Origin: Anaerolineaceae bacterium 4572_78 | GTDB taxonomy: Bacteria; Chloroflexota; Anaerolineae; 4572-78 | Assembly: GCA_002084875.1 (NCBI GenBank) | Contig: NBMH01000001.1 | Span: 1 to 37,711 of the forward strand | Direction: 5' to 3' | DNA: 37,711 bases | Shown here: piece by piece, positions 1-37,462 of the stretch | Layout of the letters: each line of letters begins with the position of its first letter | Numbering within the stretch: position 1 is the stretch's first letter | Position numbers and translations under genes: made by a program | The notes under the pieces: model-generated | What the model saw: only the letters and a program-made list of their open reading frames with translations | Told to the model about the DNA's origin: nothing | Database searches by the model: none

Positions 1-242
1 ATTTCGTACCTCAATCTTATCCATGGGGTATTGTTTTTAACAGAATATGTAGAGATTTATGGTATAAATCCTACACGATGATAAGACATGTGTCCCATAT
101 TCCTGCCATGTTCTACCTGAAAAAATAGCATTGAACAGCTCTGAATAGTAAGGGCGTACGCCCGTACGCCCTTACAACTGGCATTGAACAGCCCTGGTAG
201 GGTGAACGGTTACGTTCCGTTTTACGGATTGTTTTCCTGAAT

Positions 243-3159: not shown

Positions 3160-3308
3160 AATTACCTCACTATTCGCATGGTAGTATAGCTGAATAGCAT
3201 GATTTGGCAAATTTACAAAGCACAAAGCAAATTTGCTAAATCCTACAAAATATGTATTATGTAGAAAAGATGAATATGAGTCCTTGACTCATATAAGGTA
3301 ATAGTCAA

Positions 3309-3337
3309 ACAAGAAAGGTTTTTAAAACCTTTCTTAT
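3309..3337. repeat. Copy 1 of a dispersed palindromic element (consensus GACAAGAAAGGTTTTTAAAACCTTTCTTGTC)
   Basis: This is a near-perfect inverted repeat AAGAAAGGTTTTT/AAAACCTTTCTT in the divergent intergenic region between the ZIP gene and the GT4 gene. The same unit recurs at 6156-6188 and 22760-22790, each preceded by tAGTCa. Confidence 0.7.
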
Positions 3338-3369
3338 TTTAACCATAATAGGTTCTAGTTAGACATACC

Positions 3370-6145: not shown

Positions 6146-6155
6146 TCACATAGTC

Positions 6156-6188
6156 AGACAAGAAAGGTTTTTAAAAACCTGTGTTGTC
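6156..6188. repeat. Copy 2 of the palindromic element (GACAAGAAAGGTTTTTAAAAACCTGTGTTGTC), between the GMC oxidoreductase and the ALDH gene
   Basis: It is an imperfect inverted repeat of the same unit as at 3309-3337 and 22760-22790. It may also act as an intercistronic hairpin. Confidence 0.65.
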
Positions 6189-6206
6189 TTTAAGAAAAGG
6201 AGAAAA

Positions 6207-7811
6207 ATGACAGATAAAAAAATACTTACCTGCATCAATCCCGCTACAGGGGAAAAATTTGATGAGATAACAATGGCGACAGCCGAAGATGTCGCTACCG
6301 CATACAAAGACATGCGGCGGGCTAAAACGATATGGCAACAAAAATCGGTACATGAGCGGGTTCGCATCTTACGACAATTTCAATCGGTCATGGTCGATGC
6401 CCTCGACGAAATTACTTCGGTTATCAACCAGGACTGTGGCAAAAGTCGGCAGGATGCACTTTTAGAAGTTTTCGTTACTCTCGATTTACTTCGAGAATAT
6501 TGTAACCATGCCCCGAAATGGTTAGCACGAGAATATGTCCCATCGGGCTTACAATTTTTCAAGCGAGGCTATATTGAACATCGTCCTTACGGTGTGGTTT
6601 TGATTATAGCTCCATGGAATTATCCTTTTAATTTAGCTTTAGCACCAGTGTTATCAGCCTTATTTGCGGGAAATACGGTTTTGCTCAAATCATCAAAAAC
6701 GACAGCCGCCACAGGTAAATTAATTGAATCGCTATTCAAACGTGTTCCCGAGTTGGAGCCGTTTATTCGGATAGTGCATGGCGATAGTTCGGTGGGAAGG
6801 ATGTTAGTGAAGTCTGCCCCTGACCATATTTTTTTAACGGGGTCGGGTGCCACTGCCAGCAAAATTTTGCATGATGCGGCTGATAATTTAACTCCTGTAA
6901 CTTGTGAGCTCGGCGGCAAAGATGCCATGATTGTGCTTGATGATGCCGATGTAGAAAAAGCGGCAAAATGGGGCGTATGGGGAGCATTTTTCAATGCAGG
7001 ACAAACTTGCATGTCAGTGGAACGGGTTTATGTACATGCGTCCATTTACGATGAATTTGTCTGGCATGTTGTGGCTGAAACTGAATCCATCCAAATGGGC
7101 TATCATAAGGAAATGGTCAATTTTTGCCTTATTGGCTCCATGACCACATCTGAACAAGTCGACTTGGTCGAAGAACATTTAGCCGATGCTGTGGCGAAAG
7201 GTGCTAAAATTTTAGCGGGCGGCAGGCGACAAGACAATTTCTTTGAGCCGACGATTTTGGTTGATGTTGACCACACTATGAAGGTCATGCAAGAAGAGTC
7301 ATTTGGTCCATTCATACCGATAATGAAAGTGTCTGATGAGGCTGAAGCAATTCGGCTGGCAAATGATAGTATTTATGGATTGAGTGCTATCGTGTGGGGC
7401 AAAGATATTAAGCGAGCAGAACGAGTTGGGCATTATTTGGAAGCAGGTACTGTTATTATTAATGATGTCCTTGTTCATTTCGGGAATCCACTGTTGCCTT
7501 TTGGTGGAGTCAAGGAATCAGGAAATGGTCGTTCACATGGTAGAGCGGGCTTACTTGGGTTTACGGAACCACATTCCTACATGATAGGTAATCCACCTTA
7601 TTCATTTGACATTGCTACGATGTTACGTGAACCCGGCCAATATCATGCTAATTCAGCCATTTTACATCTGATTTTCGGTACATCGCCCAAGCAAAAATTG
7701 AGACCAATTTTGAAAGATAAGGAAACTATCAGTAAGGCAGTAAAACTGACCATGCTTGGTACTACACTAGGAATTGGTTTTAAGTGGTTGTGGCATGTGA
7801 TGAAAAGGTAA
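6207..7811 (+). CDS. Aldehyde dehydrogenase family protein with an extra ~60-aa hydrophobic C-terminal tail
   Basis: It has the ALDH signatures ELGGKDA and FFNAGQTCMSVERVYV (catalytic Cys), plus the glycine motif GSGATAS. The RBS AAAAGGAGAAAAATG is good. The C-terminal tail ...TMLGTTLGIGFKWLWHVMKR lies beyond the usual ALDH end. Confidence 0.8.
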   Translation: MTDKKILTCINPATGEKFDEITMATAEDVATAYKDMRRAKTIWQQKSVHERVRILRQFQSVMVDALDEITSVINQDCGKSRQDALLEVFVTLDLLREYCNHAPKWLAREYVPSGLQFFKRGYIEHRPYGVVLIIAPWNYPFNLALAPVLSALFAGNTVLLKSSKTTAATGKLIESLFKRVPELEPFIRIVHGDSSVGRMLVKSAPDHIFLTGSGATASKILHDAADNLTPVTCELGGKDAMIVLDDADVEKAAKWGVWGAFFNAGQTCMSVERVYVHASIYDEFVWHVVAETESIQMGYHKEMVNFCLIGSMTTSEQVDLVEEHLADAVAKGAKILAGGRRQDNFFEPTILVDVDHTMKVMQEESFGPFIPIMKVSDEAEAIRLANDSIYGLSAIVWGKDIKRAERVGHYLEAGTVIINDVLVHFGNPLLPFGGVKESGNGRSHGRAGLLGFTEPHSYMIGNPPYSFDIATMLREPGQYHANSAILHLIFGTSPKQKLRPILKDKETISKAVKLTMLGTTLGIGFKWLWHVMKR

Positions 7812-8679: not shown

Positions 8680-8926
8680 CCGCTCCCCCATCTCTAACTA
8701 GTTGTAGGGGCGGCCATACGCCCTTACTATTAGGGTTGTTCAAAGCTTGCTTTGACATGAAAAAGCAAGCTTTTTCGCTCCATTGTGCGACCACATGGTT
8801 GAAAATCATGTCGAAAAATATCCCAAGCCATGTTTTTTATTTAGCATTAAACAGCCCTACCACCTCTAACCCCTCCCCACATGGAGAGGGATTAGGGGGC
8901 GTGGAGGTGAACTGTTTGGCTATGGA
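8680..8926. repeat. Composite intergenic repeat region between convergent genes. It contains a GGGCG/CGCCC palindrome, the hairpin AAAGCTTGCTTT-gacatgaa-AAAGCAAGCTTT, a GCATTAAACAGCCC box and a G-rich tail ending GGAGGTGAAC
   Basis: Modules of this region recur at 100-215, 14620-14730, 18031-18056, 19262-19312, 24283-24362, 28735-28862 and 35641-35660. The copy at 28745-28860 is collinear with this one, except for a 33-nt insertion here (ttgtgcgaccacatggttgaaaatcatgtcgaa). Confidence 0.7.
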
Positions 8927-18210: not shown

Positions 18211-19110
18211 ATGTCAGTTGTGCTAACTCCAACTATTGAAAAACATACTAAAAAAATTAGTAGCAATAATGGTTATTGGTCAATGATGACTGATAATTGG
18301 TCAATTGTGACCGATAATTGGTTGCTGGTTTTAGATAGGTTACATGATTTGCCTGACCATACTCAACTTCCTGAAACGGACGGTGCTATCGTGGCAAACT
18401 TTCAAGAACATCCACAAAGTTCATTACTCTCGGACGCAATTACGCCCGTACTACAAGAAATACATCCCGATGGACAATATGCCATTGGACAAAATAGTTT
18501 GATTTATTGGGAATGGGTAGAGCCAGTATTGGATGGTGCTAAAGCTCCTGATTGGTTTTATGTTCCTAATGTAGCACCTTTGCTAGATGACGATTTTAGG
18601 AGGTCGTATGTGCTATGGAAAGAGCATGTTCCCCCCTTAATTGCAATTGAAATGGTGTCAGGCGATGGCAAAAACGAACGAAACCGAACACCAGGCACAG
18701 GTAAGTTATGGGTGTATGAGAATGGCATACGAATAAAATATTATGCCATAATAGATGCTTGGCGAAAAATATTGGAGGTGCGTAAATTGGTAAGAGGTAG
18801 CTATCAGTTACTAAAAGCAAATGAGCAAGGTCGCTATCTGATAGAAGAGCTGGGAGTGGAGATTGGCATGTGGACAGGCACATACCAAAACATGACCACA
18901 GACTGGTTGCGATTTTGGGATAGAGATGGCAACCTATTGTTGATAGGCGACGAGCGTGCCAAGCAGGAACGCATGCGTGCCGAACAAGCCGAAGCTAGCC
19001 TTCGCTTGAAAGACCAAGAGACTGCCCGCCGCATGTTAGCTAAAGGCATGAACGTAGCACTCATTTTTGAAATAACAGGGCTTTCAACAGATGAAATCGC
19101 TAAACTCTAA
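18211..19110 (+). CDS. Uma2-family (DUF820) putative restriction-endonuclease-like protein with a C-terminal coiled-coil/HTH-like extension
   Basis: It has the characteristic LPETDG...(acceptor-like) motif and the downstream EHVPPLIAIEMVSGDGKNERNRTPGTGKLWVYENGIRIKYYAIIDA core. This matches the Uma2 pattern ...PDLAVEVLSP...K...Y...GV.EYWIID. The C-terminal ~60 aa (ERAKQERMRAEQAEASLRLKDQE...) lie outside the core. Confidence 0.7.
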   Translation: MSVVLTPTIEKHTKKISSNNGYWSMMTDNWSIVTDNWLLVLDRLHDLPDHTQLPETDGAIVANFQEHPQSSLLSDAITPVLQEIHPDGQYAIGQNSLIYWEWVEPVLDGAKAPDWFYVPNVAPLLDDDFRRSYVLWKEHVPPLIAIEMVSGDGKNERNRTPGTGKLWVYENGIRIKYYAIIDAWRKILEVRKLVRGSYQLLKANEQGRYLIEELGVEIGMWTGTYQNMTTDWLRFWDRDGNLLLIGDERAKQERMRAEQAEASLRLKDQETARRMLAKGMNVALIFEITGLSTDEIAKL

Positions 19111-21733: not shown

Positions 21734-22723
21734 CTACATTTTTTTCATACTACATAATCGTGTTATCAGCATGTCTAATGCCATTGTCTCCTCCATTTGC
21801 CCTGTTTTAATCGCTTTGTCTGTTTCAAGTAAAATCGAAAAAACATCTACTAATTGCTTGGTGCTAAACTTTTTCCCTTCTCGTAGCCGTATCTGCACAG
21901 GGTAATCACTTCGCCAGCCTTTTGCTTGAGCGATTTGAGGTGGGGTCATGCCGCTTTCAGCCATGCTTTTTATTTCGAGCAGGCTACGAAATTGGCTGGT
22001 AATGCTACCTAATATTGCTAGGGTATGCTGTCCTTCATTCAGGTGTTTATGATATTGGTCTAATGCCTTTTCAATGTTTTGTCGTCCGATTGCGTTTGCC
22101 ATAGCAAATGCTTCGGAATCAACAGTATAAGGACATAAATATTCAACATCGGCTAAACGAATTGGACGTTTATTTTTAACATACAAAATAAGTTTTTCCA
22201 ATTCGTTATCTAACATCCGCAAATTTTCACCAACAACATTTGCTAGTGCCATCGCGGCTGGCATGTCAATTTTGCCCTCCTTTTGCTGAACACGTTTTTC
22301 TATCCATGGCACAAGTTCTCTCTTCGTCGGTTCAGGAAAAGCGTGGACACAATCAGATATTTTCAATCCTTTTTTGAGAATTGAGTGGTTTTTTCTCAGA
22401 GTAACATTCTCAATGAAAACAAGCGTGGTGCTATCAGGGAGGTTGTCCAATAATTTTGCCAAATCAGTGATGACTTCGGCACGATTTTTCTTCTTGGCTC
22501 CGCCACTGATTTGGCTCAAGTAGTTCTGAACAATTACCAGCCGATTTGAGATGAGAAAGGGCATAGCATGAACATGATGAGTAAGTTCAGCTATAGTAAG
22601 GTTTTTCCCTTCCAATTCAGTAGTATTAAGGGAAAGCATATCTGAATTACCTAGACGACTTTTTAAGTCGGCAAGCATTTCTTTGGCTGTAAATTCATTG
22701 GGCCCATGAAAAATATGATACAT
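21734..22723 (-). CDS. holA: DNA polymerase III delta subunit (HolA)
   Basis: It matches the delta-subunit N-terminal pattern (MYHIFHGPNEFTAKEMLADLKSRL...LSLNTTELEGKNLTIAELTHHVHAMPFLISNRLVIVQN). The start is set at ATG 22723 with AGGTAAAC upstream. The longer track ORF starting at 22828 adds 35 non-conserved residues. Confidence 0.65.
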   Translation of the reverse strand: MYHIFHGPNEFTAKEMLADLKSRLGNSDMLSLNTTELEGKNLTIAELTHHVHAMPFLISNRLVIVQNYLSQISGGAKKKNRAEVITDLAKLLDNLPDSTTLVFIENVTLRKNHSILKKGLKISDCVHAFPEPTKRELVPWIEKRVQQKEGKIDMPAAMALANVVGENLRMLDNELEKLILYVKNKRPIRLADVEYLCPYTVDSEAFAMANAIGRQNIEKALDQYHKHLNEGQHTLAILGSITSQFRSLLEIKSMAESGMTPPQIAQAKGWRSDYPVQIRLREGKKFSTKQLVDVFSILLETDKAIKTGQMEETMALDMLITRLCSMKKM

Positions 22724-22759
22724 GTTTACCTGTAGACTTTTTTTATACCTACAGTCTAA

Positions 22760-22790
22760 GACAAGAAAGGTTTTAAAAACCTTTCTTGTC
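22760..22790. repeat. Copy 3 of the palindromic element (GACAAGAAAGGTTTTAAAAACCTTTCTTGTC), a perfect 12-bp stem between holA and its upstream gene
   Basis: It is a perfect inverted repeat, the same unit as at 3309-3337 and 6156-6188. Confidence 0.75.
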
Positions 22791-22803
22791 TGTCCATTGT
22801 CTT

Positions 22804-24111
22804 TTATAAGCGTCGACTGATTTTCCATTTACCTTCATGAAAAACCACCTCTAGGTTGATAATTTCTGTTGTTGTAACTTCGGCATCACCCTTATTTTGC
22901 TTAATCACTGCCTGTAATTTAACTCGACTGGAAAGTGGGGTTGAGCCTGCATAAGAAACAGCTACATCTGTTTTCTCCACATCAGGAAAATATTCCAGTT
23001 TGGTAACAGATACATTAAATGGTAATGTATCACTTGGCAAGCCAAAGTAGGAAAATTTATTATTATTATATTCTGTTCCTGCTTGACTATCAGGAGCAAA
23101 AAAATCAAGCATGTTCTCATTAGCATCAACTAATGCTGTATTTTCCCCCAACGTTTTATAAAATCCCAAAACCAGTTTTTCAGGAAATTCTGTTTGGAAG
23201 ATGTTCACAAGAGGGTCTTCTAAAGCAAAATCAATATAAGATTTCACGGGAGCAGCCAATGAAGCCGCTCCTATATCTGCCATAAAGGTGGCATTAACAC
23301 CTTCACCATGAAGGTCATACACATTTTTCACTGCCAGCTGAGCCCGTTCATATGCTCCCCTGTCAGAAACTGTAACTTGTTTGGTATCAGGATTGTATGA
23401 TACCCCACCACTTCCTTCAAAAGAACCAATCACTTGATAACGTGGGGGGTCATCTCGTGGCGGTTGCCAAGGGCTTGTATTTTGTTGGAAGCTAAAAATG
23501 GTCAATTGATTTTTCACTCCATTCAATTGACCGTAAATAAGGAGCTCGGGAATACCATCTTGTACGATTACACCTGTTTCGGCATCGCAGTCACTTGTTT
23601 CGCATTTAGCAAGATTAGGAATAATATCTTGTTTGTCATCAACGATGACATGTCCTTCACCTAAGAAATCTCTGTCAGGAGCGTCAAGTGAATAAGGGAA
23701 AATAATAGGTAGCGGTTTGCCACGGTCATTATCATAAATCACCGCCAAACGTGGGGAACTTCCTGGACAAGGGTCGTTTAGGCTTTTCCTTTCAGAAATG
23801 TCACTGAATTCATCAGATACTCTAACCGAATCAACCTGATAAACGACCAGCCATTCTTGGTCTTCCGTATTATTATCTGTGTTAAGTTGTTGTGCTGAGC
23901 AGATTTTCCTCCCATCTTCAGGAATAAAATCAGTCAATTTACCTGACCAGACAAGCCAACCTGTTTCCACAAGTGGACTCATGTCAATTCTACACAGAAG
24001 TACTGAAAACACCAACATAAAACCAATAACAACGAGCAATCCAATCGCATTAACAATTGCTCCTGTAATATATTTTATAAACTGAGAACCAATTTCTGTT
24101 AATCCAGACAC
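22804..24111 (-). CDS. Hypothetical membrane-anchored protein (N-terminal TM, large extracytoplasmic domain), upstream of and co-oriented with holA
   Basis: It has a GTG start at 24111 with AAAGGTGAAAG upstream. The TM helix is AIVNAIGLLVVIGFMLVFSVLL. No domain is recognised in the remaining 400 aa. Confidence 0.5.
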   Translation of the reverse strand: MSGLTEIGSQFIKYITGAIVNAIGLLVVIGFMLVFSVLLCRIDMSPLVETGWLVWSGKLTDFIPEDGRKICSAQQLNTDNNTEDQEWLVVYQVDSVRVSDEFSDISERKSLNDPCPGSSPRLAVIYDNDRGKPLPIIFPYSLDAPDRDFLGEGHVIVDDKQDIIPNLAKCETSDCDAETGVIVQDGIPELLIYGQLNGVKNQLTIFSFQQNTSPWQPPRDDPPRYQVIGSFEGSGGVSYNPDTKQVTVSDRGAYERAQLAVKNVYDLHGEGVNATFMADIGAASLAAPVKSYIDFALEDPLVNIFQTEFPEKLVLGFYKTLGENTALVDANENMLDFFAPDSQAGTEYNNNKFSYFGLPSDTLPFNVSVTKLEYFPDVEKTDVAVSYAGSTPLSSRVKLQAVIKQNKGDAEVTTTEIINLEVVFHEGKWKISRRL

Positions 24112-28734: not shown

Positions 28735-28862
28735 ATTGGAGCGTCAAAGCTTGCTTTGACATGAAAAAGCAAGCTTTTTCGCTCCATAAATATCCCAAGC
28801 CATGTTTTTTGTTTTAGCATTAAACAGCCCTAATTGTAGGGGAGTGGTGATGGTGAAACGTT
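28735..28862. repeat. Composite intergenic repeat (hairpin AAAGCTTGCTTT-gacatgaa-AAAGCAAGCTTT, GCATTAAACAGCCC box, GGGGAGTGGTGATGGTGAAACG tail); collinear copy of 8735-8920
   Basis: It is near-identical over ~90 nt with 8738-8862 but lacks the 33-nt insertion found in that copy. Confidence 0.7.
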
Positions 28863-31800: not shown

Positions 31801-32210
31801 TCAAAAATATGGGTAACTCCTCTGATAAGTCTGTTTTTCACAAAGAATTTGTGGAAGTATGGGTCATAGATACTGGCATCGGCATGACTCAAGAGGTGAT
31901 GGATAAATTATTTAAGATAGATGTGCATCACAGCACTGTTGGCACAAACAAGGAACAAGGTACAGGCTTAGGCTTGATTATCTGTCAAGAGATGGTCAAA
32001 AAAAATGACGGGGAAATTTGGGTTGAGAGTGAACCAGGTGATGGCACAATCGTTAAATTTACTGTGCCGTTTGATAGGTCGTCTCAACAAGATACCACTG
32101 TATCATCTCATGATGACATGACTGAAAAACATACAAACATGATTAAAGATGATAATGAAGAAAAAACAAAAACATGTATCCTGCCACCTGATGAAGAATA
32201 CAACAATTAG
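28881..32210 (+). CDS. Large hybrid sensor kinase: TM - periplasmic (d)Cache-like sensor - TM - HAMP - HisKA/HATPase - REC - second HisKA-like/HATPase module
   Basis: TM1 is LIFVFVIMVLTPLVILAWL. A ~300-aa extracytoplasmic domain follows. TM2 is AIIVAVVIIAITIGIAIIITGFLVG, then HAMP. Kinase 1 has H-box LANTSHELRTPINGI, N-box LIGNAIKFT, G1 IEDTGIGI and G2 GGAGLGLALT. REC has VVDDEP, VLDVMMP and LLTAK. Kinase 2 has H-box IVAHDLKGP, N-box LTTNALKFT, G1 VIDTGIGM and G2 GTGLGLIICQ. Confidence 0.85.
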   Translation: MTKFKTWQQPLTMRKKLIFVFVIMVLTPLVILAWLNNRATHAALTSAANQTMYAAASESVTALDTFIHTNIGTVYAIAQLPQIVEYVRLPAGERLGMKNIRDIFTTLKNNNADTLTYIILDENGKIIVVGYGSGEFGIGFDKSEHDYFKIPFANGKPFISSVQFLSDEQPVLYFSTPIEDVVGNIIGVLVQVYDATVLQDLIKHNKGLSGENAFVALVDENQFYLAHSSRPENMFKFVHNVDDDTLLQLYQNERIPDLEDKALFLDDSTLKQKLIESTNKSHFSIADITPDGKVHQATVANLRMLPWSVVFFQPQDVFLEPVYEQTQTAIIVAVVIIAITIGIAIIITGFLVGPIVRLTSIAQQVGKGNLSVQAHVESGDEIGILAATFNKMINRLEARISDLTHTQEELRQSKQELEVKNKRLKEMDKLKDEFLANTSHELRTPINGIIGLTESMLDGATGRLTSVQSRNLSMVVMSGRRLSTLINDILDFSKLKHHALTLQIKPIYLYPLVDIVLALSEPLVISRPIELINDIDPDIPAVYGDENRVQQILYNLIGNAIKFTEVGKITVSTVVGEEYLTVVIEDTGIGISDENLPLIFQAFEQADGSIARKYGGAGLGLALTKQLVALHGGEIHVDSQVGKGSKFYFTLPISKGLSVDSNTFFDHQYEKETVASILINDDEVMIEHKTLAPVEGEFHILVVDDEPVNLQVLINHLSLQNYHVTAAANGLKALDLIKNGQLFDIVVLDVMMPRMSGYSVCKEIRRHYSAIELPIILLTAKNQVGDLVTGFNLGANDYLVKPFSKLELLARIKSHLQLNDMRRLNASKDRFFSIVAHDLKGPFQPLLGLTELFPLIIKNNASEDELIETANTVHASAQNVYNLLENLLKWSRLQRGHMSYEPAKLNLHEIVQQAVTLLTGNAMDKNITLQNAVPKGMFVYADENMLYTVIRNLTTNALKFTPKKGWITIKAIMLKNMGNSSDKSVFHKEFVEVWVIDTGIGMTQEVMDKLFKIDVHHSTVGTNKEQGTGLGLIICQEMVKKNDGEIWVESEPGDGTIVKFTVPFDRSSQQDTTVSSHDDMTEKHTNMIKDDNEEKTKTCILPPDEEYNN

Positions 32211-33314: not shown

Positions 33315-33625
33315 AAATGTAATAGACCTCCAAGTGCCAGTTATACCAAAAAAGGGTTAGTTTTGTGAATACCATAAGCGGGTTTATGCCATAAACCCCT
33401 ACATTAACACTGTTCACAAATGTAGGGGTTTGTGGTACAAACCACATGGTTTAAAATTACAATTCTTACCCTTAGCAATATCTTCATGAAAATATCTCGT
33501 ATTATCTAAAAATATTATAGCATGTTTCGCCTAAACGCCAAAATTGGTTCGTTATTTTGGTATGTGATTCATGATTTCTAGTTTGGCAATTCATGTTTTT
33601 GTATTAAAAAAAATTTAGTCTAAGT

Positions 33626-33677: not shown

Positions 33678-33763
33678 GGGCCGGTGGCGAAATGGCAGAC
33701 GCAGGGGACTTAAAATCCCCCGGGATCATATCCCGTGTGGGTTCGACTCCCACTCGGCCCACC
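33678..33763 (+). tRNA. tRNA-Leu (anticodon UAA), class II with long variable arm
   Basis: Cloverleaf folded by hand. Acceptor GGGCCGG/TCGGCCC (one G-U). U8. D-loop with GG. Anticodon stem GGGGA/TCCCC with loop CT-TAA-AA. Variable arm hairpin GGGAT-cata-ATCCC. T-arm GTGGG-TTCGACT-CCCAC. Discriminator A, then CC encoded (no genomic A of CCA). Confidence 0.85.
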
Positions 33764-37349: not shown

Positions 37350-37462
37350 GAGTATTTTGACCTAGGTTATAATTTGATGTTATGAAAACAAGATAAATAC
37401 CGCGACAGGATTCTAAAACCCTGTCGCTGTTTTGTGTTTAGTTAAAAAACACAACTACCGAA

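Follow-up and report, generated by a model that had tools for sequence, protein, structure and literature searches.

Background

REPs are palindromes of 20-40 bp that occur as several families per genome and form mosaic clusters, and copies that lie within genes and preserve the reading frame have been documented in linkers (PMC3733652, PMC6006769). The canonical REP guide is GT[AG]G, located 0-2 nt 5' of the hairpin foot, and in E. coli REPs have known effects at the RNA level (PMC6006769). A CGTC-tagged class, which includes Neisseria dRS3 and Rickettsia RPE-4 and RPE-6, tolerates the tag variants TGTC and CCTC and was described mainly in Alphaproteobacteria, not in Chloroflexi (PMC3733652). 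REPs have been reported in Chloroflexi, and 'untagged' REP-like families are also acknowledged (Di Nocera et al. 2013, PMC3733652; Quentin et al. 2018, PMC6006769).

The palindrome described here, designated family 1, is very likely a REP-like, non-autonomous short interspersed palindromic repeat that is specific to one uncultured Anaerolineae lineage. Indeed, it is a short, multi-copy, dispersed palindrome, mainly extragenic and near gene ends, with occasional frame-preserving intragenic copies, no target-site duplication (TSD) and a species-specific sequence, and the genome that carries it holds several unrelated families abutting in BIME/NIME-like mosaics. The match to the REP type is drawn from dispersal, intergenic bias, lack of TSDs, coexisting families, mosaics and intragenic copies.

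The DNA analysed, hereafter the window, is a stretch of 37,711 nucleotides (GC content 40%) and corresponds to a part of contig JAOZQT010000013.1 (55.9 kb) of MAG GCA_029932075.1. Names of the form 4572_78 presumably designate MAGs from Guaymas Basin hydrothermal sediment. A PrfA encoded on another contig of this MAG shares 100% identity with a protein that NCBI lists under Anaerolineaceae bacterium 4572_78. This bacterium has been placed in the class Anaerolineae (PMC6426788).

Three copies of the palindrome in the window

A preliminary description of the window had reported a palindrome at three intergenic sites. It is present at all three, with full cores, after re-reading of the positions, at 3307-3339, 6156-6189 and 22759-22791. 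The consensus at these sites is a palindrome of about 33 nt, AGACAAGAAAGGTTTT-N(1-2)-AAAACCTTTCTTGTCT, whose arms measure 15-16 nt, the stem of 12-13 bp given previously being too short. The motif tAGTCa, said to precede each copy, matches sites 1 and 2 exactly, whereas site 3 reads CAGTCTA. The gene settings are those initially given, according to the ORF listing, Pfam and public gene calls.

Site 1 (3304-3343, no strand; nhmmer E = 3.7e-11) has the core AAACAAGAAAGGTTTT-T-AAAACCTTTCTTATTT and a GTC foot motif at 3304-3306. Its arms (AAACAAG.../...CTTATTT) are 94% complementary with one C.A mismatch, and it is an AAC/GTT stem variant. It is located between two divergent genes, coding for a ZIP transporter (minus strand) and a GT4 glycosyltransferase (plus strand), 30 nt before the ATG of the latter (3370); the RNA of the plus strand folds at -12.1 kcal/mol and that of the minus strand at -19.8 kcal/mol. 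Site 2 (6153-6192, no strand; profile E = 9e-13) has the core AGACAAGAAAGGTTTT-TA-AAAACCTGTGTTGTCT, with two stem mismatches in the right arm CCTGTGTTGTCT and a GTC foot at 6153-6155. The stop of a GMC oxidoreductase gene (6145) lies 10 nt before it and the ATG of an ALDH gene (6207) 17 nt after it; the AAGGAG ribosome-binding site of the ALDH gene is outside the hairpin, whose RNA folds at -12.6 kcal/mol. Site 3 (22757-22794, no strand; profile E = 2e-13), with the core AGACAAGAAAGGTTTT-A-AAAACCTTTCTTGTCT, is a perfect 16+1+16 palindrome and its sequence is the same in three independent assemblies. It lies between minus-strand genes, 12 nt after the stop (22804) of a gene of unknown function coding for 435 aa and 35 nt before the ATG of holA (22723), and its RNA folds at -22.7 and -19.8 kcal/mol (z = -7.0 and -4.7).

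The HolA protein predicted by NCBI (P0001, 364 aa; window 21734-22828, minus strand) begins at 22828 and thus crosses the palindrome of site 3. HolA homologues are 323-337 aa long and their alignment begins at the ATG at 22723. The 35 N-terminal residues of the NCBI protein are probably an artefact, the palindrome being open in that frame.

A half-site search of the window gave 8 matches against 2.1 expected, a number reached in 0/100 shuffles, and the six real half-site arms each carry at most two mismatches. The family profile detected the three sites with E values from 4e-11 to 2e-13. When the sites were aligned with 60 nt of flank, conservation was confined to the palindrome and a few foot bases.

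Structure and folding

The alignment of family 1 gives the core AGAC-AAGAAAGG-TTTT-(T/A/TA/CG/TG)-AAAA-CCTTTCTT-GTCT, of about 33 nt, which reaches about 43 nt when a bulged GTCA/TGAC outer stem is included. The arms of 15-16 nt fold into stems of 11-15 bp with loops of 3-4 nt. Of 11 copies, 8 have a GTC triplet at 0-2 nt on the 5' side of the stem foot, and in several of them it pairs with TGAC across the stem (GTCAGAC...GTCTTGAC). This outer, bulged extension of the stem, formed with the far side in some copies, explains the tAGTCa motif mentioned above. The foot flanks observed are AGTC, GGTC, TGTC, GAAC, GGTT, ATAC and ATAA, and the 3' flanks are TTAAG, TAAG, TGACTG, TAAC and similar sequences. 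Folding energies of the window copies are -11 to -23 kcal/mol for RNA and -9 to -15 kcal/mol for DNA, and hairpin z-scores go down to -7.

Pairing is retained in the alignment, with 88% of cells paired compared with 45-62% in slid registers. Covariation across the alignment was not significant, the observed score being reached by 82 of 500 shuffles. The sole compensatory change is the replacement of a G-C by an A-U pair, which defines an AAAC.../...GTTT sub-variant (G-C pair to A-T in the DNA) in three possibly related copies, namely site 1, the second copy of contig L031 (L031b) and the copy of contig L033; the same sub-variant occurs in contig L011, which lay outside the alignment. A larger '68-nt sub-variant' common to site 1 and the L033 copy was rejected, as the flank-only score of 27 is no higher than unrelated pairs can reach (median 20, up to 31). 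The centre of the palindrome varies (CG, TG, TA or one base fewer). The CG, TG and TA centres are a plain transition (and deletion) series, which needs no special mechanism, and symmetric selection at the centre was consequently dropped as an explanation.

Copy number and dispersal

The preliminary description had made the existence of a dispersed family depend on further copies in the genome, and ten were found beyond the three window sites. In total, 13 distinct copies were detected in about 75 kb attributed to one organism, represented by MAG GCA_029932075.1. In brief, these are the three window copies; one copy at 2021-2061 of L033, on the window's own contig 8 kb upstream, and two copies at 7259-7299 and 17377-17415 of L043 (contig 41 of the MAG), the L033 copy and the second L043 copy having come from a profile search; one copy in L011; and six copies in five further contigs of metagenome Ga0190283 (one each in L027, L028, L029 and L032, two in L031). 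The copy of a sixth Ga0190283 contig, L030, was counted once, being the same locus as L043 7259-7299.

A strict 26-base pattern searched in 241 million JGI metagenome records retrieved only six contigs, all from Ga0190283, each of which matches the pattern on both strands. According to BLAST, these contigs overlap the window or the window contig only at the repeat itself. L030 is 100% identical to JAOZQT010000041.1, contig 41 of the window's MAG, and L027, L028, L031 and L032 contain the other repeat families of the window; the Ga0190283 contigs were attributed to the same organism on these two grounds. Comparison of all pairs of copies showed unrelated flanks, save for a composite shared by L028, L030 and L032. 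A core-pattern scan of 185,579 species genomes yielded, among the 20 matches listed, a single full palindrome (L011); the other 19 were discarded as chance matches, coming from unrelated phyla and having no second arm. None of the viral contigs searched with the family-1 pattern carries the element.

L011 (JAOZRY010001105.1, 1.2 kb) starts inside a family-1 palindrome and has been assigned to a 'Bacteroidales' MAG, probably through mis-binning of a fragment of the Anaerolineae genome. Its accession suggests that it comes from the same study.

The density is about one copy per 11-13 kb in regions that were partly chosen because they contain copies, and about one per 13 kb in the two regions that were not picked for a copy. 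As a rough and partly biased extrapolation, this density would imply copies of the order of 10^2 per genome. Furthermore, four short-read contigs from other assemblies begin or stop at family-1 copies, as is expected of a repeat that tangles assembly graphs; for instance, the Logan contig L035 ends within site 1 and the Logan contig L003 starts 7 nt upstream of site 2.

Position relative to genes

At a coding density of 90%, 11 of the 13 copies fall between genes (P about 6e-10). Several of them are located 9-13 nt past a stop codon and 17-35 nt ahead of the next start (sites 2 and 3, L029), and two lie in divergent promoter regions, namely site 1 and the L030 copy, the latter between the aconitase gene and prfA. 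The genes found beside copies code for a glycosyltransferase, ALDH, HolA, aconitase/PrfA, HigBA, a sugar transferase and a solute-binding protein.

The two remaining copies lie within long intact ORFs whose frames are unbroken: a cas10/csm1 gene of a type III CRISPR-Cas system on contig 41 (L043 16075-18595), with the palindrome in the coding sequence, and a yfhO-flippase fusion gene. Both are translated in the same frame, giving ETRKIFENVSCL and QTKNVFENLSCF, that is, the pattern [QE]T[KR][NK][VI]FEN[LV]SC[FL]. In both proteins, homology alignments stop within a few residues of the palindrome peptide; for Cas10, they stop 2-3 residues before it, and solved Csm1 structures have a linker that is shorter by about 50 aa. 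For the YfhO-like protein, no gain in length was demonstrated, 14 homologues having an equally long hypervariable linker at this position. Judged from these comparisons, an in-frame insertion into the cas10 and yfhO linkers is plausible.

Among the other genes of the window, the one at 15540-18023 codes for an 827-aa protein that has a major-vault-protein shoulder domain (PF11978), an unusual feature for a bacterium; it is adjoined by a gene coding for a 299-aa Uma2 + HTH_Rpn_C protein (18211-19110).

Other repeat families and mosaics

At least three further small repeat families are present in the same genome and abut one another, and family 1, in mosaics. Family 2 is a hairpin of about 50 nt, TGGAGCG...CGCTCCA, found in the window at 8740-8785 and 28737-28787, in L031 at 441-491 and in L028 at 2093-2150; its sequence is TGGAGCG(T/A)(C/A)AAAGCTTGCTTT...AAAGCAAGCTTT..CGCTCCA, with CGTC within the stem. 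Family 1 is fused to the right half of family 2 through an identical junction, CTTGTCTTGACTGTCAAAGC, at L028, L030 and L032, and the resulting similarity of flanks is the only one to stand out among all copy pairs.

Family 3, a GC-rich palindrome whose foot is GTAG/GTAA, occurs in the window at 147-176 (GTAGGGGCGGCCATACGCCCTTAC) and 8704-8727 (GTAAGGGCGTACGCCCGTACGCCCTTAC) and in L028 at about 267-292; its GTAG-foot form is GTAGGGGCG...CGCCCTTAC. It looks like a canonical GTAG-type ('double foot') REP in its predicted structure, which points to a RAYT, present or past, in the genome. A short motif, GCATTGAACAGCCCT(G), is often found beside family 3 and is part of the mosaic repeat clusters (window 131-145, 183-197 and about 28807-28823; L027 after the family-1 copy; L033 8283-8297).

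In L031, which contains another palindrome, AGACCTGTCAGGGTTTTAAACCTGACAGGTCT, a block of about 180 nt repeats at a spacing of about 1 kb (356-464 / 1378-1486 and 1304-1365 / 2302-2363), flanking the toxin-antitoxin pair higBA as well as a DUF3969 gene. This block is made up of a 62-nt unit, family 1 and the palindrome AGACCTGTCAGGGTTTTAAACCTGACAGGTCT, together with the left part of family 2; the two family-1 copies of this contig are direct repeats located 1,022 nt apart.

Two other structures were observed in the window. The longest inverted repeat of the window, at 33381-33443, has 25-nt arms that are 88% complementary, contains GTAGGGG and lies between the start of an SH3_3 gene and a tRNA gene (33678-33761); it may be another REP-like unit. 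A hairpin of 11 pairs, GCGACAGGGTTTTAGAATCCTGTCGC, at 37402-37427 (minus strand), resembles the L031 palindrome and has the GAC...AGG-TTTT-A..-CCT...GTC pattern of family 1.

Searches for insertion marks, transposase, terminators and known RNAs

No target-site duplication of 2-7 nt was found at ten boundary offsets in 11 copies. The suggestion of a MITE-like element made in the preliminary description is thus unsupported, TSDs being absent and the element measuring only 33-43 nt, whereas the REP-like alternative offered alongside it gains support from the dispersal, the unrelated flanks and the further copies. No HUH-Y1/Y1_Tnp domain or other transposase was detected in about 75 kb (genes called in L001, L004, L033 and L043, and scanned ORFs).

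No presence/absence polymorphism was found, as all independent assemblies of the same loci carry identical copies; an 11-base 'gap' in L005 considered as a strain polymorphism is only a run of N. The nearest HolA relatives (at most 60% identity, different synteny) are too distant to show an insertion at orthologous loci: relatives from Chloroflexota/Anaerolineae share 55-58% identity, and at the loci of HolA relatives holA adjoins DUF6391 with a gap of 2-8 nt and no family-1 copy. Comparison of assemblies also revealed two deletions in the window, both unrelated to the palindrome: 65 bp are missing at 1188/1189 in a FAD_binding_4 gene relative to L001, L002 and L004, the ORF being split into 300-1214 and 1174-1560, and about 101 bp are missing at about 32190-32199 in a hybrid histidine-kinase gene relative to the public record.

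The earlier view that the hairpin is not a terminator was borne out, as no copy meets terminator criteria. Indeed, none of the three window sites is among the 33 terminator-like hits of a terminator scan, and the absence of a U-tract after the hairpin holds for every copy, the tails in the window being TTTAAGAA, GTCCATTG and TAACCATA. Promoter-like matches were at chance level in a promoter scan, and no Rfam 15 family matched over the sites, either at the gathering threshold or at E values up to 5.

Comparison with described repeat classes

In contrast to classical REPs, which have GC-rich, mismatched stems of 5-13 bp, family 1 has an almost perfect, AT-rich stem of 13-16 bp that reaches about 20 bp with the outer extension. 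Neither GTAG nor GTGG is found at the family-1 foot, on either strand, in any copy checked. Moreover, REPs often occur as inverted dimers (BIME/REPIN), whereas every family-1 copy is single.

With the CGTC-tagged REPs, family 1 shares an xGTC at one hairpin foot (PMC3733652), an A-T first stem pair, intragenic units and the lack of an adjacent transposase gene. However, the base preceding the GTC at the family-1 foot is A, G or T and never C, and the GTC is base-paired in some copies, whereas the tag of the CGTC class is unpaired. That class also has a stem of 8-9 bp, a loop of 4-5 nt and a CCA tail, compared with a stem of 13-16 bp and no CCA tail in family 1 (PMC3733652). As it has no GT[AG]G, a 13-16-bp stem, no CCA tail and an xGTC that is never CGTC, family 1 falls outside the strict GTAG and CGTC classes, and its best place is among the 'untagged' REP-like stem-loop families.

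Rickettsia palindromic elements (RPE) are found in-frame in protein genes, as family 1 is in cas10 and in the yfhO-like gene, but they are about 100-150 bp long, against 33-43 nt here, and only 2 of the 13 family-1 copies are intragenic. MITEs resemble family 1 in being non-coding, multi-copy, intergenic and built on inverted repeats, but they measure 70-300 bp (PMC3733652), and family 1 is far shorter and has neither TSD nor internal sequence.

Alternative explanations

The stability of the hairpin (-11 to -23 kcal/mol) and the position of some copies in short co-directional gaps, 9-13 nt past a stop and 17-35 nt before a start (sites 2 and 3, L029), would fit a selected RNA hairpin acting as mRNA stabiliser, processing site or translational modulator, with sequence identity maintained by recognition by an RNA-binding protein or RNase, and E. 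coli REPs are known for effects of this kind (PMC6006769). Such a function is nonetheless a rather poor candidate for the origin of the family: the orientation is inconsistent, the GTC foot being on the plus strand at all three window sites while the neighbouring genes are on the plus (sites 1 and 2) or the minus strand (site 3); two copies are in divergent promoter regions and two inside ORFs; no covariation signal supports the stem; and fusion to other families and contig breaks are the behaviour of a repeat. An incidental RNA-level effect on neighbouring genes is possible and compatible with the REP-like reading. The two-fold symmetry and the position of most copies, no more than about 40 nt ahead of a start codon, would also suit the palindromic operator of a dimeric transcription factor whose regulon comprises the adjacent genes. 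The functions of these genes are unrelated, however, and 33 nt is long for an operator with an unconserved centre and a half-site spacing varying by 1 nt; copies occur inside cas10 and yfhO, and at about one per 11-13 kb the estimated density greatly exceeds that of a typical regulon, which makes this explanation highly improbable.

As the element consists only of two inverted arms of 16-20 nt around a variable centre of 1-2 nt, it could be regarded as a minimal IS-derived element, that is, two terminal inverted repeats with the ends GACAAGAAAGGTTTT abutted through a 1-2-nt spacer, as in an IS circle junction or an extreme MITE, and moved in trans by a DDE transposase. Against this very unlikely origin stand the lack of any 2-7-nt TSD at the ten offsets, a length of 33-43 nt compared with 70-300 bp for MITEs (PMC3733652) and the absence of a transposase gene from the sampled sequence. 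Stable hairpins just downstream of stop codons also recall intrinsic, possibly bidirectional, terminators, and the L031 block, which contains the palindrome and separates modules of about 1 kb including higBA, is superficially similar to a cassette array with integron attC-like sites. attC sites are imperfect palindromes of about 55-140 nt with RYYYAAC and GTTRRRY cores and extrahelical bases, organised in cassette arrays next to intI. By comparison, family 1 is shorter (33-43 nt) and nearly fully paired, a GTTRRRY core (GTTAGAC) is found only in the L028 copy, and the window copies sit among housekeeping genes rather than cassettes; with regard to terminators, no copy passes the terminator scan or is followed by a T/U tract, and 33 identical nucleotides would be unexpected among independent terminators. 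A terminator or attC-like role therefore appears extremely improbable.

A bolder version of the mobile-element reading would see in family 1 an undescribed group of long-stem (15-20 bp), AT-rich palindromic mobile elements of Chloroflexota with an xGTC foot, moved by a non-canonical enzyme, settling in-frame in linkers and fusing into composites that multiply. This proposal, which draws on the identical family 1/family 2 junction at three loci and on the block of about 180 nt flanking higBA in L031, is an unlikely one.

Proposed mode of spread

For the preferred reading, that of a REP-like, non-autonomous repeat, mobility is inferred from the distribution of the copies. Family 1 would be a selfish element whose single-stranded DNA hairpin is copied in trans by a nuclease or transposase. 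A purely conjectural candidate for this role would be a RAYT/TnpA_REP-type HUH-Y1 enzyme, yet family 1 does not carry the GT[AG]G guide of such an enzyme. Once inserted, copies would decay by ordinary mutation, as may be reflected in the transitions at the centre and in the mismatches of the outer stem and arms. When transcribed, the hairpin could incidentally alter how stable the mRNA 3' end is or how the gene ending upstream is translated, as do E. coli REPs.

Significance

Much work has been devoted to REP-type repeats in Proteobacteria, but they have barely been catalogued in Chloroflexi and are essentially undescribed in Anaerolineae. In the genome analysed here, at least four families of small repeats form mosaics, and family 1 fits neither of the published tag classes. 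These repeats have practical consequences, as they break up short-read assemblies of the MAG (copies mark the ends of four contigs) and mislead gene callers (the NCBI HolA is probably 35 codons too long). Family 1 could be used as a lineage-specific marker for binning, one copy being on a contig binned in Bacteroidales. In summary, family 1 represents a modest extension of the range of REP-like elements, and would be of larger import only if the enzyme that mobilises it proved to be new.
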